From Candidatus Doudnabacteria bacterium RIFCSPHIGHO2_01_FULL_46_24 (lineage in GTDB: Bacteria; Patescibacteriota; Doudnabacteria; UBA920; O2-02-FULL-48-8), in contig MFEL01000010.1 in NCBI GenBank assembly GCA_001777575.1, forward strand, positions 20,661 to 84,660: DNA of 64,000 bases. Direction: 5' to 3'. The position numbers were made by a program, and so were the translations under genes. A model generated the notes under the pieces. That model ran no database searches. It saw only the letters and a list, made by a program, of their open reading frames with translations, and was not told the origin of the DNA. Below are positions 6,891-60,613 of the stretch, piece by piece. Within the stretch, counting starts at the first letter, position 1; every line of letters begins with the position of its first letter.

Positions 6891-7187
6891 GTGGCTTGGA
6901 TTATTACATTAGTTATTGCTCTGATTATCGGATACCTGGCGGGCCGGCGGCGGGGAAGGGTTAATTTTGCCTCACCAAACCGGGCGGCGATGGTTCAAAA
7001 ACAAGAACATCTGGACACAATTATGAAATCATTTGCGCCTGGCGATGAGTTGAGCAACGACAAAGTCCAGGATCTACTCCAGGTCTCGGATGCCACAGCA
7101 GAACGGTACTTAAACGAGCTTGAATATCAAGGTAAATTGAGGCAAATCGGCAAAGCCGGAAAATACGTGATTTATCACAAACTTTAA
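6891..7187 (+). CDS. small membrane-anchored winged-helix DNA-binding protein
   Basis: N-terminal TM WIITLVIALIIGYLAG; C-terminal DLLQVSDATAERYLNELEYQGKLRQIGKAGKYVIYHKL resembles a Fic/DeoR-type wHTH. Confidence 0.45.
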   Translation: MAWIITLVIALIIGYLAGRRRGRVNFASPNRAAMVQKQEHLDTIMKSFAPGDELSNDKVQDLLQVSDATAERYLNELEYQGKLRQIGKAGKYVIYHKL

Positions 7188-7188
7188 C

Positions 7189-7216
7189 GCCTCAGCTTCA
7201 TTTGAGGCGTTAAAAA
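7189..7216 (+). terminator. rho-independent terminator
   Basis: AACGCCTCA-gcttcatt-TGAGGCGTT followed by AAAAAT. Confidence 0.6.
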
Positions 7217-7251: not shown

Positions 7252-7271
7252 ATTATGGGTGAATTAGCTAA

Positions 7272-7322
7272 TTGCGGGTTTGCGGATTACGCATTTAATC
7301 CGTAATTCGTTAATTCGCAATT
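7272..7322 (+). repeat. CGGATTACG / AATCCGTAATTCG hairpin repeat in the gyrB 5' UTR
   Basis: Shares words with 11161-11224, 12045-12117, 31822-31856 and 50155-50216. Confidence 0.5.
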
Positions 7323-7336
7323 AAAGAATTATCTAA

Positions 7337-9976: not shown

Positions 9977-10004
9977 TTGCTCAAAATAATCAGTATGTTA
10001 TAAT
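9977..10004 (+). promoter_or_regulatory. sigma-70-type promoter (TTGCTC -16- TATAAT, with TG extension) for secE
   Basis: -35 at 9977-9982, -10 at 9999-10004. Confidence 0.5.
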
Positions 10005-10015
10005 GACGTCACTTT

Positions 10016-10034
10016 AAGCCCGCGAGGGCTTTTT
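10016..10034 (+). promoter_or_regulatory. terminator-like hairpin plus U-run in the secE leader (possible attenuator)
   Basis: AAGCCC-GCGA-GGGCTT followed by TTT, 12 nt before the secE ATG. Confidence 0.3.
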
Positions 10035-10045
10035 AATGAGGTGTT

Positions 10046-10234
10046 ATGACAAATCCCATCCAATTCCTAAAAGAGGCCAAAAATGAGCTGTTTAAGGTCG
10101 TTTGGCCGAAGCGTCCTGAAATACTGCGCATCACCCTGGCTGTGATTATCATATCCTTGGTTATCGCTGTTTTCCTGGGCGCTGTGGATTTTGGCCTTAA
10201 TAAACTCATAAATTTCGTCTTGGATAAACAATGA
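10046..10234 (+). CDS. secE: preprotein translocase subunit SecE
   Basis: 62 aa, single TM, N-terminus MTNPIQFLKEAKNELFKVVWP; position upstream of nusG. Confidence 0.85.
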   Translation: MTNPIQFLKEAKNELFKVVWPKRPEILRITLAVIIISLVIAVFLGAVDFGLNKLINFVLDKQ

Positions 10235-11160: not shown

Positions 11161-11224
11161 CTACGAACCGGATTCGAATCTACGAACCGTTCGTAAATTC
11201 GTCTTAAGTTCGTAATTTCGAATT
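11161..11224 (+). repeat. CTACGAACC direct repeat plus TTCGTAA(A/T)TTCG repeats in the rplK leader
   Basis: Direct repeats ctacgaaccg x2 and ttcgtaaattcg / ttcgtaatttcg. Confidence 0.45.
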
Positions 11225-11230
11225 AAATTT

Positions 11231-11656
11231 ATGGCAAAGAAAGTTAAAACAACCGTAAAAATCCAGCTGTCGGCAGGCAAGGCCACGCCGGGACAGCAGC
11301 TTGGGACCTCCCTTGGGCCTCACGGCGTGAATTTGGGCCAGTTCGTCAAGGAATTCAACGATCGCACAGCCTCAATGGGGGACACTGTGGTGCCTGCAGA
11401 AATTACAATTTACGAGGACCGCTCGTTTAGTTTTGTCCTCAAAACACCGCCAGCCGCAGTGCTCATCCGCAAGGCAGCGGGTATAGAAAAGGGCTCGGGA
11501 AACCCGCTTTTGAACAAAGTCGGAAAAATTAATAAAATACAATTAAGAGAGATCGCGGAAACCAAACTACCCGACCTCAACGCCAGCTCAATCGAGGCAG
11601 CTGAGAAAATCGTGGCCGGCACCGCGCGCTCCATGGGTGTTGAAATCAAGGAGTAA
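11231..11656 (+). CDS. rplK: 50S ribosomal protein L11
   Basis: [43 protein letters not shown]. Confidence 0.95.
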
Positions 11657-11660
11657 AAAT

Positions 11661-12029
11661 ATGGCTCTAAATCTTACACTGAGAAAAGTATATCTTTATA
11701 TGTTCGCGATCGTCGGCCTTGTGCTTATTATCATCGGTGCGGTCAGCCTGATCAACCTGGGCCTGAAAACTTGGATTTTCACCAAAGCTGATGACGCTAT
11801 GTGTTATTATGGCCCAAGGTATGCGGCTCCTATGAAGGAGATTGGAACCACGGGACAAACCCAGGAAGAACTGGACCGCCAACGCGCGGAAGATGAACGC
11901 TATTGCAAAGAGGTCACCCGGCCGGCCCAGAAACAAACCCAGGCCGCCATGGCCATCGCCCAGCTGATCGTAGGCATTCCGCTGTTTGGCTATCACTGGA
12001 TGATTATACGCAAAGAAAACCAAATATAA
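11661..12029 (+). CDS. hypothetical small membrane protein inserted between rplK and rplA
   Basis: ATG at 11661; N- and C-terminal TM segments. Confidence 0.5.
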   Translation: MALNLTLRKVYLYMFAIVGLVLIIIGAVSLINLGLKTWIFTKADDAMCYYGPRYAAPMKEIGTTGQTQEELDRQRAEDERYCKEVTRPAQKQTQAAMAIAQLIVGIPLFGYHWMIIRKENQI

Positions 12030-12044
12030 ATAGCTTAATTATTT

Positions 12045-12117
12045 TATTTCGAATTAACGGATTATGTCTTAAACTGCAATTCGCCTGCCTACCGGCAGGC
12101 AGGCAATCCGTAATTAT
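12045..12117 (+). repeat. rplA leader with AACGGATTA / GCAATTCG / CAATCCGTAATT repeat words and palindrome GCCTGCC-tacc-GGCAGGC
   Basis: Hairpin at 12082-12103; could be an L1 autoregulatory site or a terminator for the inserted gene. Confidence 0.4.
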
Positions 12118-16923: not shown

Positions 16924-16993
16924 ATAAAGTTCTGAGTTCTAAGTTTGTAAAGTCAAAAGCAACTTTATGAACTCAGAACTTAGAACTAAATCT
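16924..16993 (+). repeat. AGTTCTGAG/AGTTCTAAG palindromic repeat element, copy A
   Basis: tttataaagttctgagttctaagtttgtaaagtcaaaagcaactttatgaactcagaacttagaact; related copies at 20236-20286 and 59209-59270. Confidence 0.7.
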
Positions 16994-18095
16994 ATGGACA
17001 TTCAAGAGCTGATCAAGAACATCGAACAGCTCCAAGGCGATGCCGAGGCCTTGAAGGAGCACCTTTGAGCTGCCTCAAAATAAACAAAAAATTCTAGAGA
17101 TAGAAGACCGGATGTCAGCCCCTGATTTCTGGTCTGACCCTGCCAGGGCCAAAATCGTAGCCCAAGAATTAGATCGGGTTAAAACTGAGGTGTCAGGATG
17201 GGAAAAATTCGAGCAGGACTTGGCAGAGCTGGCAGGAATGGCTGAAATGGCTCTAAAAGAACAGGATAAAGCCCTGGAAGCCGACCTAATGGCAAAATTT
17301 GGCGATTTAAGAGGCCTATTCGAGCACTTGCGCCTTTCGACCTTTTTGAGCCAAAAATACGATAAAAACAACGCTTTTTTGTCCATCCACGCCGGCGCTG
17401 GGGGAGTGGACGCCCAGGACTGGGCCGAGATGCTGTTGCGCATGTATTTGCGGTTCGCGGAAAAAGAAAAATTCAAGGCATTGGTGGTTGACGAAAGTCG
17501 GGGCTCAGAGGCTGGCATAAAAAGCGCAGTGCTGGAAATTTCCGGCGCATATGCCTATGGTTACCTTAAAAGCGAAGCTGGCGTACACCGCCTGGTCCGG
17601 CTGTCGCCGTATAATCCTGCGCATACGCGCGAGACGTCTTTTGCGCTCGTCGAAGTCCTTCCAGCCATTGAGCAAGAGGAATACAAACTTAACCTAAGCG
17701 ATATTGAGATAGAAGCCAAAACTTCGCGGGGCCACGGCGGTCAAAGCGTCAACACGACTTACTCTGCGATAAGAGCGACCCACATCCCGACCGGAATCAC
17801 GGTTACCATCCAGAACGAACGCAGTCAAGCGCAAAACAAACAACAAGCCTTAAAAATTATATCGTCAAAACTCGCCGCTTTGGAAGAAGAAAAACAGCGC
17901 CAAGAGAAATTGGCCCTGCGCGGCGAGTTTCAGTCTGCCGAATGGGGCAATCAGATCCGATCTTATGTCCTTCACCCCTACAAACTAGTCAAAGACCACC
18001 GCACCGGCTTTGAGACCTCTGACGCCGAGTCTATTTTGGACGGAGAATTGGAGGAATTCATCAAGTCATATCTCGAGCATACGAAACAAAAGTAA
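16994..18095 (+). CDS. prfB: peptide chain release factor 2 with programmed +1 ribosomal frameshift: join(16994..17065,17067..18095)
   Basis: Frame-0 MDIQELIKNIEQLQGDAEALKEHL ends at CTT TGA (17063-17068), preceded by the SD-like AGGAG; the +1 frame continues ELPQNKQKILEIEDRMSAPDFW; GGQ motif present; SPY replaces the canonical SPF. Confidence 0.9.
17051..17069 (+). promoter_or_regulatory. RF2 autoregulatory frameshift site (internal SD AGGAG, CTT TGA G)
   Basis: aaggagcacCTTTGAg; arrangement analogous to E. coli AGGGGGuauCUUUGAC. Confidence 0.85.
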
Positions 18096-19711: not shown

Positions 19712-19820
19712 TATGAATCCCGTTAGAAATTCACTTTCAAGTTTTTTTAGCATGAATTTGTTTTATGAAATGGGCCAGGGTAAACAGCGTTCACAGCAAT
19801 TAAATTTCTAAACGGGATGA
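19712..19820 (+). repeat. inverted-repeat (MITE-like) element, copy 1: TIRs TATGAATCCCGTTAGAAATT / AATTTCTAAACGGGATGAA
   Basis: About 19-bp terminal inverted repeats flanking about 70 bp; the 3' TIR contains the rplI ATG (19817); second copy at 40021-40130. Confidence 0.75.
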
Positions 19821-20242: not shown

Positions 20243-20286
20243 AGTTACTTTTGACTTTACTCACTTAGAACTCAGAACTTAGAACT
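20236..20286 (+). repeat. AGTTCTGAG-family repeat, copy B (partial, reverse orientation)
   Basis: tttataaagttacttttgactttactcacttagaactcagaacttagaact ends exactly at the pyrG ATG. Confidence 0.7.
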
Positions 20287-30356: not shown

Positions 30357-31802
30357 TCACGATTGGAATAATTTTTCAATGGCCGTATTTAATCTTTTCA
30401 AAATTATTTCCTTACCGTTTGGCAAAACAGCAAACGCATCCATGATTTCAAACGGCCCGGGGCTGGCTTCCAATCCAGTCAAAGCCACCCTAAGCGGCCA
30501 GAGTATAGCACCTTTGTCTTTATCCCCGATCTCGGCAAAAAAAGCATTTTGAATTTCTTCTTTGGAAATTGGGAATTGGCAATTGATAATTATTTTTTTA
30601 GCAATTTCTAGTGATTCGCTTAATTGGCGATTATCCACCTTTTTCCACCGAAGCATCTCTGGGTCATATGCAGGATCGCTAAAAAAATATTTGACCCTCT
30701 CCCCTATCTCAGAGAGCTTCTTAAGCCTCGCTTGTTCCAAAAGCAAAATCCTCAGCAAAAATTCTTTGGGATATTTTTCAAGCTCAAACCCCGCCCTGAT
30801 TAAGTACGGACTAATTCGCGCGAATAAGTCCTCGACTTTCAGGCTGCGGATATAAACTCCATTGAGCCAATCCAGTTTTTCCGGATCAAACACTGCGCCG
30901 GCTTTATTGAGCTTATCCAGGGAAAATTCTTCAGTCAGTTCGCGAAGGTTAAAAATTTCCTGCTCGGTTTTGGGGTTCCAGCCAAGCAGAGCGACGAAGT
31001 TAAGCAGGGCCTCGGGCAAATAACCTTGCTCCAAAAAATCTTTGACCGCAACATCGCCTTCCCGCTTGGAAAGTTTTTTGCGCGTTTTGGAAAGCAGCAG
31101 CGGCAGATGCACGAATTGAGGCAGCGGCCAGCCGAAAAATGAGTAAAGCAAAATATGCTTCGGCGCCGAAGGTACCCACTCCTCTCCCCTAATGACATGG
31201 GTGATGCCCATCAAATGATCATCAACCGTCGCCGCCAAATGGTAAGTCGGAAAACCGTCAGATTTCAAAAGCACCTGGTCATCCAAATCGTCCGATGAAA
31301 CGGAAATTTGCCCATGAATCACATCGGCAAAACTTATCCGCTGGCCGGCAGGTACGTTCATCCGGATTACGTGTGGCTCATTAGCTCGCAGTTTCGCTTC
31401 TGTTTCATCCTTTGAAAGCTTAAGACAATGTTTGTCATATTTAGGCGGCTGCTTGTTCTCCTGCTGCTGTTTGCGCAATTGATCAAGTCTCTCTGGCGCG
31501 CAAAAACAATGGTAGGCATGGCCTTTGTCTATAAGTTCCTGTGCGTGTTTGAAGTAAATGTCCAGTCGCTGCGACTGCAAAATAGGGCCTTCATCGAAGT
31601 TAAGCCTGAAATCCTTGAGGGTCTGCACGATATTCTCAAGTGATCCCGGCACAGTTCTTTTGACATCCGTGTCTTCGATGCGCAGGATAAATTTGCCGTT
31701 GTTTTTCCTGGCCCACAAAAATTCATAAAGCGCGGTGCGCAATCCGCCGATATGCAAAAATCCCGTGGGACTTGGAGCAAACCTGGTTCGTACTTCGGGC
31801 AT
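30357..31802 (-). CDS. gltX: glutamyl-tRNA synthetase
   Basis: RFAPSPTGFLHIGGLRTALY (HIGH), KKLSKREG (KMSKS). Confidence 0.95.
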   Translation of the reverse strand: MPEVRTRFAPSPTGFLHIGGLRTALYEFLWARKNNGKFILRIEDTDVKRTVPGSLENIVQTLKDFRLNFDEGPILQSQRLDIYFKHAQELIDKGHAYHCFCAPERLDQLRKQQQENKQPPKYDKHCLKLSKDETEAKLRANEPHVIRMNVPAGQRISFADVIHGQISVSSDDLDDQVLLKSDGFPTYHLAATVDDHLMGITHVIRGEEWVPSAPKHILLYSFFGWPLPQFVHLPLLLSKTRKKLSKREGDVAVKDFLEQGYLPEALLNFVALLGWNPKTEQEIFNLRELTEEFSLDKLNKAGAVFDPEKLDWLNGVYIRSLKVEDLFARISPYLIRAGFELEKYPKEFLLRILLLEQARLKKLSEIGERVKYFFSDPAYDPEMLRWKKVDNRQLSESLEIAKKIIINCQFPISKEEIQNAFFAEIGDKDKGAILWPLRVALTGLEASPGPFEIMDAFAVLPNGKEIILKRLNTAIEKLFQS

Positions 31803-31821
31803 AATTATTTATTGCTGACTA

Positions 31822-31856
31822 AGGATTACGAATTGTCAATCCGTAATCCGTAATTC
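31822..31856 (+). repeat. GGATTACG-aattgtcaat-CCGTAATCC hairpin (CGGATTACG repeat family) in the gltX 5' region
   Basis: 8-bp stem; the same word family as 7272-7322. Confidence 0.5.
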
Positions 31857-32665
31857 TTCAATTTATATTTATACACTTTCCAAATAAACACCGGCACCGC
31901 GTTCCACATTCGCTTAATCCGCCACGGCTGGGTGATCAGCCGCCACAGCCACTCCAAGCCCATGTCATGCAAGAACTTGGGCGCCTGGGGCTGTTTTCCG
32001 GCGATATAATCGAATGTGCCGCCCAAACCAATGGCGACTTTAACGTTCAATTTTTGAAGATTTTGGGCCAGCCACATCTCTTGCTTGGGCGGCGAATAAG
32101 CTATAAGCAGTATATCAGAATTACTCTGGTTTATCCTCTCGACCAGAGCGTCGTCAAATTCACAGTCAGACAAGGCCAGATTAATCCTTAATTCTTTATT
32201 CTGACTCCTTAATTCTTCTCCAGCTTTTCCTGCAACATCATCGGTTCCGCCGACCAGGGCCAAAGAGTAGCCGCGGTCAGCCGCAAGTTTAGCGATATCC
32301 CAAATTAAATGGCTGCCGGTGACCTGTTCTTTTATGACCGACCGAATCCAAGCGGGATAAAAAATTATTGCGGCAAGCGAGAGAATAAGATTTGAAAAAT
32401 GAAAATTGAAAATTGAAAATTGTTTCTTTCGTTGCAACGAAAGAAACTTAGCTGCCCAAAGTATACCAATGCCGTCCGGCAATGAAAGATTCGCGCTGTT
32501 AAGGACTTTTTTATAATTTTCGTCCCGTTGAGCAAATACAATCAGCTCTGAATATGGCGTAGTGACCAGGTGCGGCTGACCGTTTTGAACAAATTGATCA
32601 ATCGCGGCAATAGCCTCCTGCTTCAATACGCTGACAACCTGCACACCGGCAATGTCTATTTTCAT
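31826..32665 (-). CDS. WecB/TagA/CpsF-family glycosyltransferase
   Basis: LSLPDGIGILWAAKFL, GGTDDVAGKAGEEL, 279 aa; carries an in-frame repeat insertion. Confidence 0.75.
   Translation of the reverse strand: MKIDIAGVQVVSVLKQEAIAAIDQFVQNGQPHLVTTPYSELIVFAQRDENYKKVLNSANLSLPDGIGILWAAKFLSLQRKKQFSIFNFHFSNLILSLAAIIFYPAWIRSVIKEQVTGSHLIWDIAKLAADRGYSLALVGGTDDVAGKAGEELRSQNKELRINLALSDCEFDDALVERINQSNSDILLIAYSPPKQEMWLAQNLQKLNVKVAIGLGGTFDYIAGKQPQAPKFLHDMGLEWLWRLITQPWRIKRMWNAVPVFIWKVYKYKLKNYGLRIDNS
32394..32447 (+). repeat. in-frame insertion in the WecB/TagA CDS: (GAAAATT)x3 tandem repeat plus perfect palindrome GTTTCTTTCG-ttgcaa-CGAAAGAAAC
   Basis: Encodes LQRKKQFSIFNFHF on the minus strand; reading frame preserved. 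Confidence 0.6.
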
Positions 32666-34080: not shown

Positions 34081-35004
34081 ATGGCGCATAAAATAGTCTT
34101 TGCAGGCACAACTGATTTTGGCATCCCGACTCTCGAAATACTAAATACTAAATACCAAATACTGGCCATTGTCACCCAACCTGATCGACCCGCTGGAAGA
34201 AAAAAAGCGCTCTCCCCTTCCCCGATCAAACTGTGGGCCGAAAAAAATAACATTCCGGTTTTACAACCCGAGGAACTATCAACTATCACCCATCAACTAT
34301 CAACTTTAGAGCCCGGTCTTTTGCTTGTCGCCGCGTACGGCCAGATCATTCCCAAGGATATCCTCGACATCCCTAAATTCGGCTCAATCAACATTCACGG
34401 ATCCCTCCTTCCCAAATACCGTGGAGCTAGCCCGATCCAAGCGGCGATATTGCGCGGAGAAACCGAAACCGGCATCACGCTTATCAAAATGGACGAGAAA
34501 ATGGATCATGGCCCTGTTATCGCCCAAGCAATGATGACGATTGATGATAATGATGACTTCATAACTCTTTACAAAAAACTCTCGGATCTCTCAGCCGACT
34601 TGGTCATGGAAACCCTACCCAAGTGGTTTACCGGCCAAATGAGAAGTACCGAGCAGCGTCATGAGCAAGCTACTTACACCAAGCTTTTTGCGCACAGCGA
34701 TGGCCGGGTCGACTGGGCTACACCGGCTGTTGAGGTAGATCGAAAAGTCAAAGCCTTGAATCCTGAACCGGGCGTGTGGACTACGCTTGACAAAAAATCT
34801 GTTAAAATACTAAAAACAAAAGCGCTGCCTGATGCCAAAATTGAGCTTCCCGGAAAAATTTACGAAAGCGGCAATGAAATGCTGGTCAAATGCCAACTGG
34901 GGAGCCTGCAAATTCTCTATCTGCATCCGGAAGGCCGCAAACCCATGACCGGCCGCGACTTCTTAAACGGCCTGAAGTCAAGATCTAACGCAATGTTTAT
35001 ATAA
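34081..35004 (+). CDS. fmt: methionyl-tRNA formyltransferase
   Basis: MAHKIVFAGTTDFGIPTLE start; formyltransferase core SLLPKYRGASPIQ; C-terminal domain. Confidence 0.9.
   Translation: MAHKIVFAGTTDFGIPTLEILNTKYQILAIVTQPDRPAGRKKALSPSPIKLWAEKNNIPVLQPEELSTITHQLSTLEPGLLLVAAYGQIIPKDILDIPKFGSINIHGSLLPKYRGASPIQAAILRGETETGITLIKMDEKMDHGPVIAQAMMTIDDNDDFITLYKKLSDLSADLVMETLPKWFTGQMRSTEQRHEQATYTKLFAHSDGRVDWATPAVEVDRKVKALNPEPGVWTTLDKKSVKILKTKALPDAKIELPGKIYESGNEMLVKCQLGSLQILYLHPEGRKPMTGRDFLNGLKSRSNAMFI
34262..34312 (+). repeat. in-frame ATCAACTATCA-type short repeat inserted in the fmt CDS
   Basis: gaactatcaactatcacccatcaactatcaacttta encodes EELSTITHQLSTL; same repeat words as 25318-25360. Confidence 0.6.
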
Positions 35005-40026: not shown

Positions 40027-40130
40027 CCCGTTTAGAAATTTAATTGCCTAGATTAATAGTTGAAACTTGATATTCCTGTTTAGCGATGCCTCCTTGAAGC
40101 TAGTCTAAAAAATTTCTAACGGGATTCATA
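40021..40130 (-). repeat. inverted-repeat (MITE-like) element, copy 2, inverted relative to copy 1
   Basis: TIRs CTTCATCCCGTTTAGAAATTT (40021-40041) and AATTTCTAACGGGATTCATA (40111-40130), identical to the copy-1 TIRs; the MBL start codon lies in the TIR. Confidence 0.75.
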
Positions 40131-40515: not shown

Positions 40516-42168
40516 ATGAGCTTGCTTAACACAAAAACGAAAATTGCCCTCATCTTTGCGGCTGTCGGTTTAATTCTTTATGCCAACAGCTTAAATAACC
40601 AAATGTTTTGGGATGACCAGGACATCATCCTTAACAACCAGTATGTCCAAAATTTCGATTGGCCGAAGTTTTTCAGCGAAAACCAGATCGCGGGCGCGGG
40701 GCTTACCAGCAACTACTGGCGGCCGCTGATGCTGACGGCGTTCTCAATTGAGTGGCAGCTCTGGAATGACTGGGCTCCCGGATACCACTTGATAAATCTC
40801 TTATTGCACATCGCCAATACTATCTTACTGTACAGTATTACAGTAAGGTTATTTCGCTTGCCCTGGGTTTCTTTTCTGACAAGCTTAATCTTCCTCATCC
40901 ATCCGCTGCAGACCGAGGCGGTCACCTATGTCTCCGGCCTGGCCGATGTGCTTTCAACTTTTTTTATTTTCTTAGGCATATTATTTTACTGCAAATTTCG
41001 GCTTACCCAAAATAGCGGTCACAATTTTAGGTACTTCCATAAATACTACGGTTACACTTTACTTTGCTATATCGCAGCTATACTTTCCAAAGACACGGCT
41101 GTGGTTATGCCGGCCATGCTGGCCCTGACAGATTTTTTTGCCCTGCCCTCAGAGCTTACGGTCAAGCAACGTCTGTTCAAAGTTGTCAAAAATATCTGGC
41201 CATTTTTCCTGCTGGCCGGCCTCTACCTGCTTCTGCGCGCCACCGCGCTTAACTTCAGCAACACCTTCAATGTTTATGGCGAAGAAAATCTGTTTACGGA
41301 AAATTTTGGCGTCCGGCTGCTGGCTTTCTTCCGCGCCATGGCAATTTATTTCCAACTTTTGTTTTGGCCGAATAATCTGCATATGGAGCGCGGCTTCGAC
41401 ATTCCCCACAACCTACTCATTCCGGACGTCTTTGTTGGGGGCTTACTCGTCTTTGGCCTAATAACCGCGGCCTTTTTATGCATCAAAAAATACCCAATCA
41501 TAAGTTTTGGGATTTTCTGGTTCTTCATCCGCCTGTTTCCCAATTCCAACCTCCTCATTCCGAATTCGGGCCTGATTTACGAGCATTGGATGTACGTGCC
41601 GATGATTGGAATATTTTTGGTCATGTCTTATCTTGCGTTAAATGTAGCGGAGGCCTTTAGGCCTCCATTATGGAAACCTAAAGGTTTCCGCTACATACTT
41701 GCATTGCTGCTTATATTCTATCTCGCGATTTTGGGCAAAAAAACCATTGCCCGCAACAATGACTGGCAAGACCCAATCACTTTTTACAACCAAACGCTTA
41801 AGTATTCCCAAACTTATCGCGTCTTAAACAACCTCGGTATGGCCTATGCCGACGCCAAGCTGTCTGCCGAAGCGATTGAAACTTACCAAAAAGCCATCAA
41901 CCTGGACGCCCACAACGCCGTGGCTTACCACAACCTCGGCAACTCCTATAAAGAAATTGGCAACCGCGGGCAGGCGGTCAAAAACTTCGAAACCGCCATC
42001 GAAAAGCAGCCTGATTTCTTCTTCTCTTACTACGCGCTCGCTCAGCTCTATCTGGACGAAAAAAACTATGCCTCGGCAATCAGTGTTCTTGAAAAATTAC
42101 AGAAGTTAAATCCAGCAGACCAGAAAATAGCGAGGTTAATTGAACAAATAAAAAGGCTCCGCAAATAG
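40516..42168 (+). CDS. TMTC-like multi-pass membrane protein (DUF1736, GT39/PMT-like) with C-terminal TPR repeats
   Basis: YWRPLMLTAFSIEWQLW...HLINLLLH; about 11 TM; 4-5 TPR repeats at the C-terminus. Confidence 0.7.
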   Translation: MSLLNTKTKIALIFAAVGLILYANSLNNQMFWDDQDIILNNQYVQNFDWPKFFSENQIAGAGLTSNYWRPLMLTAFSIEWQLWNDWAPGYHLINLLLHIANTILLYSITVRLFRLPWVSFLTSLIFLIHPLQTEAVTYVSGLADVLSTFFIFLGILFYCKFRLTQNSGHNFRYFHKYYGYTLLCYIAAILSKDTAVVMPAMLALTDFFALPSELTVKQRLFKVVKNIWPFFLLAGLYLLLRATALNFSNTFNVYGEENLFTENFGVRLLAFFRAMAIYFQLLFWPNNLHMERGFDIPHNLLIPDVFVGGLLVFGLITAAFLCIKKYPIISFGIFWFFIRLFPNSNLLIPNSGLIYEHWMYVPMIGIFLVMSYLALNVAEAFRPPLWKPKGFRYILALLLIFYLAILGKKTIARNNDWQDPITFYNQTLKYSQTYRVLNNLGMAYADAKLSAEAIETYQKAINLDAHNAVAYHNLGNSYKEIGNRGQAVKNFETAIEKQPDFFFSYYALAQLYLDEKNYASAISVLEKLQKLNPADQKIARLIEQIKRLRK

Positions 42169-46875: not shown

Positions 46876-48876
46876 ATGCTCACAGAAACAAGTATTGTTT
46901 GGTTTGCAATTATCGCAGGCTTAGCCGCGATTGTTTATGGGTTCATTCTTACGCGGCTGGTCTTGAAAAAACCGTCGGGTGACGACAAAATGCGCTCCAT
47001 CGCCGCGGCCATCCAGGAAGGCGCATCTGCTTACCTTACGCGGCAATACAAAACCGTGGGGACAGTCGCAGCCGTGCTGGCGGTTTTGATTTATTTCTTT
47101 TTCAACATCCAGACCGCACTTGGTTTTTTGCTGGGAGCTATAGCTTCTGCCCTGGCTGGCTTCATCGGAATGTACGTGGCTGTGCGCGCCAATGTCCGAA
47201 CTGCCGAGGCGGCCAAAGTCGGATTGAAACCGGCTTTTGCCCTGGCTTTCAAGGGTGGTGCTGTAACCGGCTTGTTTGTGGTGGGTTTGGGGCTTCTGGC
47301 CGTGACTTTGTTTTTCGAATGGACGAATCATGATATCCCGCCCTTGATCGGCCTAGGTTTTGGCGCCAGCTTGATTTCAGTGTTTGCGCGCTTAGGCGGC
47401 GGCATCTTTACCAAAGGTGCGGATGTGGGCGCGGACTTGGTGGGTAAAATTGAAGCCGGGATTCCGGAAGATGACCCCAGAAACCCGGCCGTGATCGCGG
47501 ACAATGTCGGTGATAACGTCGGCGATGACGCGGGTATGGCCGCTGACCTTTTTGAGACCTATGCCGTGACCACGATTGCCGCCATGATTTTGGGCAGCAT
47601 CTTGTTTAGCAATAATGAAGTCTTTGTGCTTTATCCCCTGGCTCTGGGTGCAGTGTCCATATTCGCCTCAATTATTGGCAGCTTCTTTGTCAGGCTCACA
47701 GGCAAAGCCATTATGACCGCATTATACAAAGGCTTGGCCGTTTCGGGAGTCTTAGCTGCCATCGGCTTCTACTGGGTCACCAAAAGCTTATTTATCCCCT
47801 TCTTTAGCCAGAGCTTGTTTTATTCAACGCTGGTCGGCTTAGGAGTGACAGCGCTGATGGTTGTCATTACCGAATATTACACTTCCAAAAAATTCAAACC
47901 AGTCAAGTCAATTGCCCAGGCTTCCACCACAGGCCACGGCACCAATATCATCACGGGCCTGGCAGTTTCGATGCAGTCAACGGCTCTGCCGGTGCTGACG
48001 ATCGTTGCCGGAGTCATGCTCTCTTATCATTTCGGAGGCATTTACGGTTCAGCCATTGCCGTAGTTTCCATGCTCTCCATGGCTGGCATAATCGTAGCCA
48101 TAGACGCATTTGGGCCGATTACCGATAATGCCGGCGGAATCGCGGAAATGGCCGGACTGCCTGAGAACGTCCGACAATCAACGGATGCCTTGGATGCCGT
48201 GGGTAATACTACCAAAGCTGTGACCAAAGGTTATGCCATTGCCTCGGCCGGACTGGCTGCCGTCGTTTTATTCGCTTCATACACCGAGGAGCTTAAGCGC
48301 CTTGGGCAGAATTTAACTTTTGACCTTTCTGACGTGCAAGTGCTGGCCGGCTTGATCATCGGCGGCCTACTCCCCTATCTGTTCGCTTCCATGGCCATGC
48401 AGGCCGTGGGCAAAGCCGGGCACGCGGTGGTGGAGGAAGTCCGCAGACAATTCAAAGAAATTCCCGGCATTATGGAAGGCACCAGCAAACCTGATTACGG
48501 CAAAGCCGTGGACATTGTGACCAAAGCCGCAATCAAGGAAATGGTTATCCCCGCTTTGCTTCCGGTGGTGGTGCCAATCTTGGTCGCTGTGATTCCGTTT
48601 CTCGGTTTGAAAGCTCTCGGTGGTGTATTGGTTGGCTCAATCGTCACAGGACTTTTCGTCGCCATTTCTATGACCTCAGGCGGCGCGGCCTGGGACAATG
48701 CCAAAAAATTTATAGAGGAAGGTAACTTTGGCGGCAAGAAATCTTTTGCCCACCAAGCGGCCGTAACCGGCGACACTGTCGGCGACCCGTACAAAGACAC
48801 GGCCGGCCCAGCGATTAACCCCATGATTAAGATCATAAATATCGTCGCACTGCTAATTATCGGATTGCTGGTCTAA
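46876..48876 (+). CDS. hppA: membrane-bound proton-translocating inorganic pyrophosphatase
   Basis: [27 protein letters not shown], 15-16 TM. Confidence 0.95.
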
Positions 48877-48884
48877 AAAACCTT

Positions 48885-48935
48885 CAACGCCTCATATGCA
48901 TGTGAGGCGTTGAATTTTGTCGTATTTTCGGGTAT
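48885..48935 (+). terminator. rho-independent terminator
   Basis: CAACGCCTCA-tatgcatg-TGAGGCGTTG followed by aatTTTgtcgtaTTTT. Confidence 0.8.
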
Positions 48936-49399: not shown

Positions 49400-49485
49400 T
49401 GCTAGACTTTTTGGGGTTATTTTTTTCGCAAACGATATTATACTTTTTTGCCCGTACGAGCAGAAAGGTATAATATCAAAAACCG

Positions 49486-50697
49486 CTAAAAAACTTTATC
49501 TATCACTCCGCCGCCCAGAAGCTCATCGCCCTGGTAAATCACCGCTGCCTGCCCAGGTGTTATCGCCCTCTGGGGTTGATCAAAGACTATTTTTAATCTG
49601 TTTTCTGTTTCCTGTTTACTGATTACTGCTGGATAATTCAGATGATGATACCGGATGCTAACCCCGGCTTCCAACGAAAACTCAGGAACATTGCCTACCC
49701 AACTGACATCAGTAATCGTAAATTCTTTTTTCCAGAGCTGGGGATCGTTCTGATCATTACTTACAAACAGCCGGTTAGTTTCAAAGTCCTTATTGACGAC
49801 GTAATAAGGACCATCGCCGCCCAAACCCATGCCCTCTCTTTGGCCGATCGTATAATAGGGCAAACCATCATGCTGCCCGATTACCTGGCCTGAAGTAGCA
49901 ACTATCTCTCCTGCTACGGCCGGGATTTTTTCTTTCAAAAATTCTCTGACATTAATTTTGCCGATGAAACAAATCCCTTGGGAATCTTTTTTGGCATAAT
50001 TGGGCAATCCAAACTTTTTGGCTATTTGACGAACTTTTGACTTCTTGTATTCCCCTATCGGAAACAAAATTTTTGCCAGCTGTTCTTGTTTCAAAGTGTA
50101 AAGAAAGTAGCTTTGGTCTTTAGCTGGGTCAATCCCTTTGCGCAATTGATAAATTTTAGGATTGCGGATTGCGGATTGCGGATTGGCTTTTAATTCGTAA
50201 TTCGTAATTCGTAATTTTTTAATTCTGGCATAATGCCCCGTCGCGACATAATCCGCGCCAAGGGATAAGGCCTTGTCCAAAAATAACTTAAATTTAATCT
50301 CGCGATTGCACATCACATCCGGATTGGGCGTCCGACCGGCTGCATATTCGCGCAAAAAATACTCCACCACTTTCTCGTAATACTCTTTTTCAAAATTCCA
50401 GACGTAAAACGAGATGTCCAAAACCTTGGCCACTTTTCTGGCATCCTCAGCGTCCTCGACCCAAGTGCAGCCAAAGTCTCCCCGCCCAGTTCTGCTGGGC
50501 GAGGCTCCCGCTCCAGAGCGAGGCTCGCTCAACTCTGTTGAGCGGCGCCCCGATTTCGGGGCGGCAAAATCCTGCGACCAATTCTTCATAAACACGCCAA
50601 TAACATCATAGCCCTGCTTCTTAAGCAAAGCTGCAGCCACGGAGGAGTCAACTCCCCCACTCATGCCCACGACAATTTTTTGCTTGGGGTTGGACAT
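49486..50697 (-). CDS. mnmA: tRNA-specific 2-thiouridylase MnmA with two in-frame repeat insertions
   Basis: PP-loop VGMSGGVDSS, GHYAR, DQSYFL. Confidence 0.9.
   Translation of the reverse strand: MSNPKQKIVVGMSGGVDSSVAAALLKKQGYDVIGVFMKNWSQDFAAPKSGRRSTELSEPRSGAGASPSRTGRGDFGCTWVEDAEDARKVAKVLDISFYVWNFEKEYYEKVVEYFLREYAAGRTPNPDVMCNREIKFKLFLDKALSLGADYVATGHYARIKKLRITNYELKANPQSAIRNPKIYQLRKGIDPAKDQSYFLYTLKQEQLAKILFPIGEYKKSKVRQIAKKFGLPNYAKKDSQGICFIGKINVREFLKEKIPAVAGEIVATSGQVIGQHDGLPYYTIGQREGMGLGGDGPYYVVNKDFETNRLFVSNDQNDPQLWKKEFTITDVSWVGNVPEFSLEAGVSIRYHHLNYPAVISKQETENRLKIVFDQPQRAITPGQAAVIYQGDELLGGGVIDKVF
50155..50216 (+). repeat. in-frame tandem repeats (GCGGATT)x3 plus (AATTCGT)x3 inside mnmA
   Basis: Encodes ITNYELKANPQSAIRNPKI on the minus strand; same words as the UTR hairpin repeats (CGGATTACG family). 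Confidence 0.65.
50478..50570 (+). repeat. in-frame GC-rich palindromic insertion inside mnmA
   Basis: Three hairpins: GAGCGA-ggc-TCGCTC, CGCTCAAC-tctg-TTGAGCG and GCCCCG-attt-CGGGGC; encodes AAPKSGRRSTELSEPRSGAGASPSRTGRGDFG. Confidence 0.6.
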
Positions 50698-50746
50698 ATA
50701 ACCATCGGCGTCTAGTATAAATAAAAAAGAGTCATGCTTCAAGCAG

Positions 50747-50929
50747 CTAGGCGCCGTTTGCGATGACTTTGTTGACTTGCCCCAGGGCAACGTGCAGCGC
50801 TCTCGCGATCTCCCGCTGTGATGCTCCTCTTGCTGCCAGTTGCCTGATAGCCCGGTCTCTGCGCTTTTTGAGTCGCATCAACTCTCTACGGAAATTGAAC
50901 TCCATGCTCGTCTCTAATGCCATGTTCAC
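50747..50929 (-). CDS. small HTH protein (sigma region-4 / Fis-like HTH)
   Basis: ASQREIARALHVALGQVNKVI; about 58 aa. Confidence 0.35.
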   Translation of the reverse strand: MNMALETSMEFNFRRELMRLKKRRDRAIRQLAARGASQREIARALHVALGQVNKVIANGA

Positions 50930-56828: not shown

Positions 56829-57929
56829 TTAAACCAAAGTGAATTTATCTTTGCCGACTTTCTGAAAACGCTTCTTATTGGACAGGCCGACGAGGATCGT
56901 ATTGCGCTTGACCATGCGGCGTTTCAACACCTCGTTGATGATCTCATCGCGGGAAAGCGGCCGCTGAGCGGCGGTCAACGTTTCTATAATCACATCGGCA
57001 ACTACGCCTTTTTTATACCCCCATTCGGAAAGCGCATAAATCCCCCGGCCGATCAGGACAAACCGGTTATCTTTAATCAGCTCATTATGGACCGTCTCCT
57101 GATAGGCTGTCCGGTGGTCAAACTTACGCGCGTTGATCATCTTGGTGATGATCGAATAGTGCTCCGGTTTGCCGTGATGCTTCAAAACCAGATAAGCCTT
57201 GTCGCCCACATCCCGCGGCCTGACTTCATTCCAACTGGCCAGACCGATTTCTCCAAACGGATTGATCAGAATTTGTTTGGATAAGCTTAGATAGCTTTTC
57301 AACACCTTGTCGGTCAGCTCAAACTGGTGTCGCCGATAATAGTCAGTGTCCTTGAGTTTGGCGCTTAAGTCATCCTGCTTAAACACACGGCCCTCTGCCT
57401 TCAAAATATCAATCAGGACTGCTATAGTTCCGGTAAGCCGCTCTTCGTTAAACCCGGCCAATGCAAAAGCATGGTAGTAATCGCCGGTCTCTTTCCATTC
57501 ATGAAACTGCTCGCCCACCGCCAGTAAAAACTTAACTGCCTGGCGATCTTTCTCGTTTTCTTTACCGGGCAAGAGAGTTTCCAGGAAAAATTCCTCAGAC
57601 ATGACATCCCCATACTCGGCAATAGTGTCGAAAATCAAGCGCAGCGCCGCTTCCAGCTCTGTCCCGCCTTTGTGTCGCAGAGCCTCAATCGAATCCTTTT
57701 CAATTTGCCGCACCCTTTCTCTGGTGAGATTGTGCTGTGTGCCAATCGCCTCGAGTGTGGAAAGTTCCCGTCCTTCCAGCCCGAACCGCCGGACAAGTAT
57801 TTCCCTGTCTCGTTCTTTGAGCATTGCCAAAAGTTTGCTTACAATCCCTTCCGGCTCAAAGGACGAAAGGCTGCTCTGGGTCTGCGAACCCATGATAGTA
57901 TCAAGTATGTTGGAAGATAATTCTGTCAT
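56829..57929 (-). CDS. DNA-binding protein: sigma-70 region 4 HTH plus C-terminal HARE-HTH domain
   Basis: REILVRRFGLEGRELSTLEAIGTQHNLTRERVRQIEKDSIEALRH (sigma region 4); GKPEHYSIITKMINA...RFVLIGRGIYALSEWGY matches the HARE-HTH signature of RNAP delta/ASXL/restriction-enzyme HTH. Confidence 0.6.
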   Translation of the reverse strand: MTELSSNILDTIMGSQTQSSLSSFEPEGIVSKLLAMLKERDREILVRRFGLEGRELSTLEAIGTQHNLTRERVRQIEKDSIEALRHKGGTELEAALRLIFDTIAEYGDVMSEEFFLETLLPGKENEKDRQAVKFLLAVGEQFHEWKETGDYYHAFALAGFNEERLTGTIAVLIDILKAEGRVFKQDDLSAKLKDTDYYRRHQFELTDKVLKSYLSLSKQILINPFGEIGLASWNEVRPRDVGDKAYLVLKHHGKPEHYSIITKMINARKFDHRTAYQETVHNELIKDNRFVLIGRGIYALSEWGYKKGVVADVIIETLTAAQRPLSRDEIINEVLKRRMVKRNTILVGLSNKKRFQKVGKDKFTLV

Positions 57930-59209: not shown

Positions 59210-59270
59210 AGTTCTGAGTTCTAAGTTTCTAAAGTTAAACGCAACTTTATGAACTTAGAACTTTATAAAC
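59209..59270 (-). repeat. AGTTCTGAG-family repeat, copy C, between the secD stop and the secF start
   Basis: tagttctgagttctaagtttctaaagttaaacgcaactttatgaacttagaactttataaac; abuts the secF ATG. Confidence 0.7.
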
Positions 59271-59272
59271 TT

Positions 59273-60613
59273 TCAACTTTCCTCTGACATTTTTGGCACG
59301 CCGTACAGCCAATGATGCACTAAGAGATTATGCCCCACCAAAAGTCTTAAGAAAGTCCGCGTGAGCGTGATTGCGGTGAACATGGAAACGATGATGCCGA
59401 TGGACAGGGTGATGGCAAAACCGCGGATGATACTGGAGCCGAAGTAACCCAAGATAAAGGTGGTGATCAAGCTGGAGAAGTTGGAATCGCGGACGGACAG
59501 CCAGGCGCGCTTAAATCCCTCCTCCACCGCCTGCTCCAAGGTCCGACCCTTGCGCAATTCTTCCTTCAGGCGTTCAAAAATTAAAATATTGGCATCCACC
59601 GCCATGCCGATGGACAGGATAAAGCCGGCAATGCCCGCTAGCGTAAATGTGATGCCGAAAACTTTGAACAAGGCAATGCTGAGAGCGGTATAAATGGAAA
59701 GTGCGATGACGGCCAACAAACCGGGCAGGCGGTAGTAAACAATCATGAATAGGGCGATAATGGCAAAACCGATCAAACCGGCAGCCACGCTTTTCTGAAC
59801 CGATGCCAGTCCCAATGTAGCGCCGACATTCTGCTGTTGGATAAGTTTGATCGGCACTGGCAAAGCTCCCGAGTTGAGCCTGGTCACCAATTCCTTGGCT
59901 TCCTGCACCGTAAATTGACCGGTAATCACGGCCCGGCCATCAGTGATGGCGGTTTGCACCGTGGGTGCGGATAAAATTTGGCCGTCGAGGAAAATAGCCA
60001 CCCGCTTGCCGATATTGCGCTGAGTGATGTCAGCGAACTTTTTGGTCCCTTCAGCGTCGAACTGCAGCGAAATCTGAGGGACTCCGGTCCGTTGATCAAA
60101 TTCCAAACTCGCGCGCTTGAATTCCTTGCCGGTTAAACCTGTGGGGATAAAGGCCTGGTCAGCGCTGATAGTCACTTCGCCATTCACATCCGGGGTCACT
60201 TCGGGCGGATTGGGGTTTTCTACGCGGAATTCCAAAAACGGCGTTTGGCCGATCAGCTTGATCGCTTCATCGATGTCTTTCACCCCGGGCAATTCGATAA
60301 TGATGCGATCTGTTCCCGAGACCTGCACCAAGGGTTCGGATACGCCAAAGGCATTGACGCGCCGCTCGATAACGTCCCGGGCCGAATTCATGGCGTCGGC
60401 ACGGGCGTCTTGAGGAATGTCTTTGAGGTTACCCTCATAGACCAAGTGGGTGCCGCCCTGTAAATCTAAGCCCAAATTGAGCTTGAACTGCTTCTCAAAA
60501 TTGATTCTGGCCCATTTCAGGCTGATTTTACTCCCAGCCGGCAAGGCAATATAAAAAACCGCCCCAGCCAGCAGCAGAATCAGGATAAATTTGAAATATA
60601 AACCCTTGCGCAT
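59273..60613 (-). CDS. secD: protein translocase subunit SecD
   Basis: N-terminal TM, periplasmic domain, 6 C-terminal TM; LDLQGGTHLVYE. Confidence 0.9.
   Translation of the reverse strand: MRKGLYFKFILILLLAGAVFYIALPAGSKISLKWARINFEKQFKLNLGLDLQGGTHLVYEGNLKDIPQDARADAMNSARDVIERRVNAFGVSEPLVQVSGTDRIIIELPGVKDIDEAIKLIGQTPFLEFRVENPNPPEVTPDVNGEVTISADQAFIPTGLTGKEFKRASLEFDQRTGVPQISLQFDAEGTKKFADITQRNIGKRVAIFLDGQILSAPTVQTAITDGRAVITGQFTVQEAKELVTRLNSGALPVPIKLIQQQNVGATLGLASVQKSVAAGLIGFAIIALFMIVYYRLPGLLAVIALSIYTALSIALFKVFGITFTLAGIAGFILSIGMAVDANILIFERLKEELRKGRTLEQAVEEGFKRAWLSVRDSNFSSLITTFILGYFGSSIIRGFAITLSIGIIVSMFTAITLTRTFLRLLVGHNLLVHHWLYGVPKMSEES

Follow-up and report, generated by a model that had tools for sequence, protein, structure and literature searches.

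Heptanucleotide repeat hairpins inside mnmA and in gene leaders of a Candidatus Doudnabacteria genome

The 64-kb stretch of DNA described here (the window; contig MFEL01000010.1, positions 20,661 to 84,660) belongs to Candidatus Doudnabacteria bacterium RIFCSPHIGHO2_01_FULL_46_24, a groundwater bacterium of the candidate phyla radiation (CPR). Inside mnmA, the gene of tRNA 2-thiouridine(34) synthase, it carries a 62-bp element built of 7-nt units, and related hairpins stand in front of other genes. The element probably belongs to a hairpin-forming family of heptanucleotide simple sequence repeats (SSRs), similar to short tandemly repeated repetitive (STRR) sequences, its copy in mnmA being a tolerated passenger. 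Directly observed are the anatomy of the element, the enrichment of period 7, the lineage specificity, the logic of orientation and frame, and the asymmetric folding. The defining property of the family is the 7-nt period rather than the words. The repeats behave like a young, fast-changing family, not like a conserved regulatory signal.

Element inside mnmA

49486–50697, − strand: mnmA, tRNA 2-thiouridine(34) synthase, 403 aa as annotated (OGE81144.1).
50159–50185, + strand: left arm, (GGATTGC)x3.9, 100% matches in Tandem Repeats Finder.
50186–50190, + strand: hairpin loop GCTTT, on the sense strand within AATTAAAAGCC.
50191–50216, + strand: right arm, (TAATTCG)x3.7, 100% matches in Tandem Repeats Finder.

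Two oppositely oriented heptanucleotide arrays, in the order (AATTACG)3, loop, (AATCCGC)3 on the coding strand of mnmA. On this strand the right arm reads as (AATTACG)n and codes ITNYEL; the left arm reads as (AATCCGC)n and codes NPQSAIRNP. The mechanically delimited open reading frame (ORF) of mnmA occupies 49486–50790 of the − strand, and its translation over the element is GHYARIKKLRITNYELKANPQSAIRNPKIYQLRKG. The sense ORF is open through the element and the copy is in frame, as a preliminary description made from the sequence had stated; all five sequences cited there were recovered at their positions.

The 29-bp stem at 50158–50218 is the top-scoring simple hairpin of the window. Folding is strongly asymmetric: −32.3 kcal/mol for RNA of the + strand (z = −8.5; 0/200 shuffles as good), −2.6 kcal/mol for the sense (−) strand (z = +0.7). 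The arms pair through G:U pairs, on the + strand only. As mRNA, the sense strand of mnmA is essentially unstructured across the element. The + strand contains stops in all three frames, because TAA recurs in (TAATTCG)n, while the sense frame is open. The copy has the polarity of the leader hairpins, but is antisense to mnmA; this antisense placement is the sole orientation free of stop codons.

Two other origins of the element were considered and rejected. An assembly artefact is ruled out by the identical sequence in independent ENA, JGI and NCBI assemblies. An origin as a protein-level repeat or coiled coil does not fit arrays that cover just about 1.3 periods of a 7-aa cycle, many of them non-coding.

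MnmA loop in homologs and relatives

In about 115 MnmA homologs compared, the loop after GHYAR is 8–34 aa in length (mode 12). In the present organism it is 29 aa, longer by 17 aa than the modal loop and by 6 to 12 aa than the loops of the nearest relatives; the earlier estimate of about 20 added residues was roughly right. The solved MnmA in the PDB aligns with a 15-aa gap opposite LRITNYELKANPQSA. In the AlphaFold2 model the insert has a predicted local distance difference test score (pLDDT) of about 57–60. None of the distant orthologs in the homolog set carries the segment. The alignment thus agrees with the variable-loop insertion that had been expected and supports the view of the mnmA segment as a lineage-specific insertion in a hypervariable, low-confidence loop.

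Orthologous loops of relatives differ in the unit and copy number of their arrays. One relative (L004) has (AATCCGA)x4.5 at this site, a word one base away from that of the window; another (L208) has GAAATCC/GAAGTAC units; two more (L206 and L207) have (CAAAAGT)-type units. Four Doudnabacteria relatives with other heptamer arrays at one site point to an array that is old there and whose word drifts. The arrays already present at the loop of relatives argue for growth of the element that was at least partly local. The second arm is absent from the MnmA loops of relatives. The novelty of this species lies in the second arm together with the loop, about 31 nt.

A single copy-number variant was found, in a MEGAHIT contig (L005; ENA ERZ27254767, k141_2215835) whose only differences from the window in 20.7 kb are two 7-nt deletions. 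Its positions 10000–10130 correspond to 50120–50250 of the window. Each arm is one unit shorter (2+2), and the mnmA frame is broken, leaving two ORFs, one of 155 aa and one of 249 aa. The intact 3+3 form is present in at least four other assemblies. The variant could be a real slippage allele or, equally, the product of an assembler that collapsed two repeats of equal length.

Two further sites of mnmA are variable.

50470–50571, − strand: second in-frame insertion, codes AAPKSGRRSTELSEPRSGAGASPSRTGRG.
49597–49621, − strand: third variable site, an imperfect (AACAGAA)-type array (sense), codes SKQETENR.

The second insertion has a GC content of 0.68, against about 0.42 for mnmA, and folds into four small hairpins in a row (−61 kcal/mol). 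Its site is 8 aa long in 105/115 homologs and 36 aa long here, with a pLDDT below 50 in the AlphaFold2 model; it looks like the version of P0013/P0117 plus a further nested insertion. The AACAGAA-type word of 49597–49621 was found at the same site in L208. In L206 (GCA_016182875.1, 9308–10004) a PF01797 gene with a perfect 17-bp palindrome before it is located directly upstream of mnmA.

Leader hairpins

The copies fall into two families by their units. Family A (RATTRCG units) comprises the mnmA element and the copies before gyrB, rplK, rplA and gltX; family B (AGTTCTR units) is located before prfB, pyrG and secF.

7269–7323, + strand: family A, gyrB leader; starts 19 nt past a TGnTATAAT −10 box, ends 14 nt before ATG.
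11161–11224, + strand: family A; fills the rplK leader between a TTGACT-18-TATAAT promoter and ATG, ending 7 nt before ATG.
12045–12117, + strand: family A; outer stem TTAACGGATTA...AATCCGTAATT around a GC-rich inner hairpin, past the DUF5671 gene and 15 nt before the ATG of rplA.
31821–31858, − strand: family A, gltX; ATTACGGATTACGGATT / AATTCGTAATCC, ends 18 nt before the gltX ATG.
16928–16987, + strand: family B hairpin, prfB; −30.0 kcal/mol, 6 nt before ATG.
20263–20286, + strand: family B, right arm only, ACTTAGAACTCAGAACTTAGAACT, pyrG; abuts ATG.
59216–59263, − strand: family B hairpin in the secD–secF gap (stop to start), 6 nt before ATG.

When family A copies are aligned in the direction of the gene that follows, they show a common layout: first a G-rich left arm (CGGATTRCGG), then a loop and finally a AATTCGTAATTCG-type right arm. 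This upholds the earlier claim of shared words at five sites. Mean column identity is 51%; individual copies vary as to length, loop and order of units, and no head is common to them. Column identity of family B is 73%, and AACTYAGAACT words stand against ATG in 3/3 of its copies. AGAACTYAGAACT occurs 7 times in the window, against 0.1 expected.

All intergenic copies (7/7) end 0–18 nt before a start codon. The hairpins precede gyrB, rplK, rplA and gltX, as had been described; the placement needs correction at gltX, where the copy overlaps the last approximately 11 codons of the upstream WecG-family gene, and at rplA, where it follows the DUF5671 gene and not rplK directly. Folding is significant at all four of these cited sites. 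The gyrB leader hairpin folds with −24.9 kcal/mol in the sense orientation (z = −5.8) and −16.0 in the antisense one. The rplK hairpin is loosely periodic and folds better antisense (−26.0 vs −18.3 kcal/mol).

Shine-Dalgarno sites are scarce (7/59 gene starts). At many genes −10 boxes occur 4–30 nt before ATG, e.g. at 46876, 56829–57929 (−), 59273–60613 (−) and 18113; such TATAAT-like boxes close to ATGs suggest short-leader or leaderless mRNAs.

In two strain variants (L209, L210; 99.93% identity) the hairpins are identical to those of the window. In two syntenic species (L211 and L212; GyrB 84% and 81% identical) the gyrB, rplK and rplA leaders have no hairpin. The rplK leader of L211 has the same promoter (…TTTTTACAAATTAAGAA.CTATAA…) with ATG four bases on; in the window a hairpin of about 70 nt stands between. 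Their absence from L211 and L212 marks the gyrB, rplK and rplA leader hairpins as recent, lineage-specific gains. A conserved regulatory leader was rejected on the same absence and on L006 (RplA 70% identical), in which rplK is followed directly by rplA. The absence also tells against the proposal that the leader copies are binding sites of a regulatory protein. A contig scan with RplA yielded mostly distant taxa, which served as a control set.

With Rfam, tRNA alone passes the gathering threshold over the whole window, and nothing matches at mnmA in permissive scans. A mir-1005 match on the gyrB leader (45 bits against a threshold of 80 bits) was dismissed as generic hairpin resemblance. A sliding 70-nt minimum-free-energy scan was too unspecific.

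Enrichment of words and of period 7

The words occur at about double the frequency that composition predicts, which answers the question of motif excess left by the preliminary description. With at most one mismatch, CGGATTACG has 24 matches (11.6 ± 3.2 expected; 0/100 shuffles reach 24) and RATTRCGRATT has 33 (16.5 ± 3.9 expected; 1/100 shuffles reaches 33). Exact matches of RATTRCGRATT number 14 and, except for two singletons, are clustered at the five cited sites.

Strict tandem loci are five, at period 7 (with its harmonic 14); none occur at other periods of 4–13. The period scan of shuffles gave about none, apart from a single locus at period 15 put down to chance. The window contains 19 local runs of lag 7, and a 168-kb pool of Firmicutes loci contains 7; for the remaining lags not divisible by 3, the window yields 0–8 local runs. 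Per 64 kb there are 12 heptamer arrays here, and most Firmicutes loci have about 0. A pervasive mutational bias towards lag 7 was discarded as an explanation: global lag-7 identity is 0.2514, equal to that at other non-multiple-of-3 lags, and just the local runs are enriched.

Several unrelated units are used: RATTRCG, AGTTCTR, AACTATC, AAATACT and TTGNNAA. The clearest arrays are intragenic in 8/12 cases (mnmA, fmt, gltX and the WecG-family gene).

34136–34163, + strand: (AAATACT)x4 inside fmt, no net insertion.
34274–34305, + strand: (AACTATC)x4.6 inside fmt.
30562–30591, − strand: TTGNNAA-type heptamer array inside gltX, no net insertion.

The fmt and gltX arrays occupy homologous positions and cause no net length change compared with solved homologs. 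In the (AAATACT)x4 array of fmt a single deviant base turns a would-be TAC-TAA into TAC-CAA, avoiding a stop; this loss of TAA shows that the reading frame filters arrays.

Distribution beyond the genome

RATTRCGx3 arrays occur in at least 120 metagenome contigs with a GC content of 34–73%. In viral contigs at least 120 stretches carry RATTRCG arrays, against 13, 20 and 38 for three composition-matched control heptamers. An inverted partner lies within 150 nt of about 5–12% of RATTRCG arrays (6/120, 14/120) and of 1/71 control arrays, numbers too small for comparison. Peptides encoded by RATTRCG (ITNYELR, NPQSAIR) are present in 177 database 'proteins', mostly spurious ORFs of 40–83 aa; the records include Nostoc, Cylindrospermopsis, Sphaerospermopsis, Chitinophaga, Bacteroidetes, Acidobacteriota, Verrucomicrobia and Bordetella. 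Some IMG/VR contigs (L213–L292; e.g. L278, 4790–4850, IMGVR_UViG_3300009868_000138) have 5–7 RATTRCG copies, hairpin pairs included.

An unrelated metagenome contig (L129) has (AATTACG)4-AAAC-(AATCCGC)3 in frame in TsaD, in the same sense orientation as the mnmA copy. Its folding energy is −14.7 kcal/mol sense vs −35.0 antisense, an asymmetry as in mnmA.

Similar architecture was found in other CPR bacteria. Candidatus Uhrbacteria nzgw360 (L018, 4080–17466) has about 10 hairpins of 20–37 bp in 18.7 kb, and a Komeilibacteria sequence (L032, 2329–3356) has five period-7 arrays, including one periodic-arm hairpin, in 15.6 kb. The hairpins of L018 have arms of tandem 7–8-nt units and fill intergenic gaps among the ribosomal-protein genes, some of them stopping 6 nt short of a start codon. 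Hairpins with periodic (7–8-nt) arms might form a self-propagating, transposase-independent repeat class typical of CPR, a reading that L018 and L032 support. Such a class would colonise gaps close to start codons and, in the stop-free orientation, loops of essential proteins; where Shine-Dalgarno sites are few, it may serve for processing or for control of translation in 5′ untranslated regions (5′ UTRs) or intercistronic gaps. This wider reading is improbable.

Relation to known repeats

Heptanucleotide SSRs are over-represented in many bacteria, polymerase slippage being the proposed cause (PMC4692102). The same source describes or cites inverted GGGAATC arrays from Xanthomonas, GGGGA(T/C)T arrays from Nostoc and the STRR of Calothrix. 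The mnmA element has the defining features of this class: head-to-tail 7-nt units in three or more copies, many units per genome, enrichment of period 7, and now and then an inverted pair of arrays that can form a stem-loop. One base separates GCGGATT from the GGGGATT of Nostoc. RATTRCG arrays are present in other bacteria, and the encoded peptides in records of Nostoc, Cylindrospermopsis and Sphaerospermopsis. Distinctive here are the CPR host, the short arrays (3–5 units), the location of many of them inside essential genes, and the inverted pairs, which form dispersed families with G:U-rich stems beside start codons. The literature search found nothing tying heptamer repeats to Patescibacteria.

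TAACTGA repeats of marine Beggiatoaceae, cyanobacteria and Bacteroidetes are likewise arrays located directly upstream of start codons, are sometimes read through in ORFs, a few copies giving 7-aa periodic peptides, and have a patchy phylogenetic distribution (PMC4679880). They differ in having one dominant word and direct repeats; the window has several words, with its leader copies arranged as inverted pairs (hairpins). PMC4679880 also cites binding of CspB to heptamer repeats.

Rickettsia palindromic elements (RPEs) are alike in having palindromic copies between genes and in frame in conserved proteins, where a peptide is added at a permissive site. RPEs are of about 100–150 bp and have a family consensus. 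The mnmA element is of 62 bp, consists of 7-nt units, has no sequence relation to RPEs and occurs in another taxon; it is not a member. Repetitive extragenic palindromic (REP) sequences and their REPIN doublets, associated with RAYT transposases (PMC3116915), are also short, dispersed intergenic or intercistronic hairpins, the doublets forming long hairpins. They have a conserved GTAG/CTAC head and near-identical copies. The present copies have neither; their arms are 7-nt periodic and one copy is intragenic. Assignment to REP was therefore rejected, only words being common (51% column identity) and a common head being absent. Assignment to MITEs (miniature inverted-repeat transposable elements) was also rejected: the whole element is the hairpin, no flanking duplications are seen against L004 and L211, and lengths vary from 38 to 73 nt. 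No RAYT/Y1 transposase was found in the window by tblastn with Y1_Tnp of L206.

Origin of the repeats and alternative explanations

An unusually dense population of 7-nt repeats in this Candidatus Doudnabacteria genome would have given rise to at least two dispersed hairpin families. Arrays would grow, shrink and homogenise by 7-nt steps via slipped-strand mispairing. Inverted partners would arise, and stay in step with the arrays, through intrastrand (hairpin) template switching or through copying of other family members. In a compact genome copies would persist just where harm is small, i.e. in promoter or stop-to-start gaps and in permissive protein loops. An intragenic copy would have to keep a total length that is a multiple of 3 nt and a stop-free orientation. 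The mnmA copy would lengthen a surface loop of MnmA and would not be a device with its own function. Leader copies put stems of 20–30 bp at mRNA 5′ ends or between cistrons and may, as a side effect, influence mRNA stability or translation. Slippage and template switching as generating mechanism, and the neutrality of the copies, are what we infer from the sequence comparisons. Of the earlier statement that the repeat is mobile or expandable, expandability holds for the units; mobility is not supported, the window having no terminal inverted repeats, target duplications or transposase.

Several observations weigh against this origin. Pure local slippage leaves unexplained the words and layout common to five or three dispersed copies, the hairpin of about 70 nt that stands between the −10 box and the ATG of rplK and has no counterpart in a relative, and the 28–32-nt arrays of fmt and gltX without net length change. 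The ending of 7/7 intergenic copies 0–18 nt before a start, with Shine-Dalgarno sites at 7/59 genes, could mean functional selection; so could the same 3′ words held against ATG in family B. RATTRCG arrays are at least 3–9 times commoner than control heptamers in viral contigs, an excess which indicates that the RATTRCG word itself is favoured. Slippage is not directly observed: L005, the sole copy-number variant, is maybe a MEGAHIT collapse and breaks the mnmA frame.

The leader copies could be functional cis-regulatory RNA hairpins, acting in 5′-end protection, as sites of RNase III cleavage or as targets of a protein that reads 7-nt units (e.g. a cold-shock protein), with the mnmA copy as a by-product. 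In a genome poor in Shine-Dalgarno sites they would so determine how stable mRNAs are or how translation is initiated. RNase III acts on stems of 20–29 bp. The constant position before start codons agrees with such a role, as do the location of the gyrB and rplK copies just past good −10 boxes, hence in the 5′ UTR, the G:U pairs that favour the sense-strand fold at gyrB, prfB and gltX, the non-periodic nature of the terminator-type hairpins of the window, and AACTYAGAACT kept beside ATG in three family B copies; translational control has been proposed for TAACTGA repeats upstream of start codons (PMC4679880). The role is nevertheless unlikely, given that L211 and L212 have no such hairpins in their orthologous gyrB, rplK and rplA leaders, the rplK copy folds better antisense, no Rfam family matches, and in a compact genome nearly any intergenic position is near a start codon. 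Non-autonomous mobile DNA, MITE-, REPIN- or RPE-like and moved in trans, would make true insertions of the mnmA and TsaD copies. It would account for two dispersed families, with 5 and 3 members within 64 kb, for presence or absence between species with a clean gain of about 70 nt in the rplK leader, and for the same two-array unit in frame in TsaD of a different organism; a Y1 transposase-family gene (PF01797) adjoins mnmA in L206, and in-frame palindromic insertions of RPEs are a precedent (PMC10969869, PMC1779305). Family A copies, however, vary in length, loop and unit order at 51% column identity, with no terminal inverted repeats and no target duplications seen against L004 and L211. The window has no Y1 transposase homolog, and the Y1 gene of L206 carries its own palindrome, of 17 bp and non-periodic. 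Arrays pre-exist at the MnmA loop of relatives, with the word of L004 one base away. Mobile DNA of this kind is distinctly improbable.

Two explanations concern mnmA itself. The copy could be an antisense intrinsic terminator, its + strand stem of −32 kcal/mol followed by TTTTTT blocking read-through from a convergent H+-PPase operon. The + strand is terminator-like in a consensus scan (a pattern match only), the stem is strong on that strand alone, and the upstream + strand genes converge on mnmA. Terminator-type hairpins at 48883–48914 and 49434–49477 already stand right after the + strand genes, though; the T-run is merely the complement of KK codons, the TsaD copy of L129 has just TTT after its stem, and the second arm is missing in relatives. 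Such a terminator is very improbable. Alternatively, the arrays could make mnmA phase-variable (a contingency locus), gain or loss of a unit shifting the frame and toggling s2U34 modification of tRNA. A 7-nt unit is not divisible by 3, and L005, with 2+2 units and a split gene, has zero other differences in 20.7 kb. Typical contingency tracts are longer than the 3–4 units per array found here, both arms of L005 are altered together, as a k-mer assembler would collapse equal-length repeats, and at least four other assemblies carry the intact 3+3 form; phase variation is thus hardly to be expected. The preferred origin remains heptanucleotide repeats that form hairpins and are tolerated in mnmA.

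Other features of the window

Terminator-type hairpins (7183, 21951, 37459, 48883, 49434) are non-periodic. Those at 7183–7214 and 48883–48914 share the arms AACGCCTCA...TGAGGCGTT and represent a separate, non-periodic family at gene ends.

A small DUF5671 gene at 11700–12029 (ORF listed as 11637–12029) separates rplK from rplA. It keeps its position in L209–L212, rplK and rplA being non-adjacent in this clade.

prfB retains a classical AGGAG + CTT TGA frameshift site near 17055–17068.

An identical 19-nt leader, AATTAAATTTCTAAACGGG, stands right before the ATG of rplI (L9) and of a gene of an MBL-fold hydrolase. The copies are at 19795–19816 and 40027–40048 (− strand), with a partial copy before 40142.

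A 20-bp hairpin at 41642–41696 is located in the ORF 40516–42168 of a TPR protein. Both of its arms are palindromes in their own right (GGAGGCCTTTAGGCCTCC / GGAAACCTAAAGGTTTCC). The hairpin, whose in-frame translation is NVAEAFRPPLWKPKGFRY, represents a further in-frame palindrome, not a heptameric one.

Significance

The repeats are a hazard for annotation and assembly: gene callers make spurious 'proteins' of 40–80 aa from them, and in at least one assembly mnmA is frameshifted exactly at the repeat. They illustrate a repeat family filtered by the reading frame, through orientation, lengths in multiples of 3 nt and removal of a stop by a single base. The compact genome is suited to studying the dominance of 7-nt units among bacterial microsatellites and the reason why RATTRCG is favoured. 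If the leader copies affect expression, they would give a new handle on translation initiation in bacteria largely without Shine-Dalgarno sites. MnmA alone has three lineage-specific insertion sites, and the repeats offer a concrete source, at the level of DNA, for such insertions where CPR proteins are otherwise conserved. Should periodic-arm hairpins be a CPR-wide repeat class, they would be one source of the unexplained insertions in CPR proteins.

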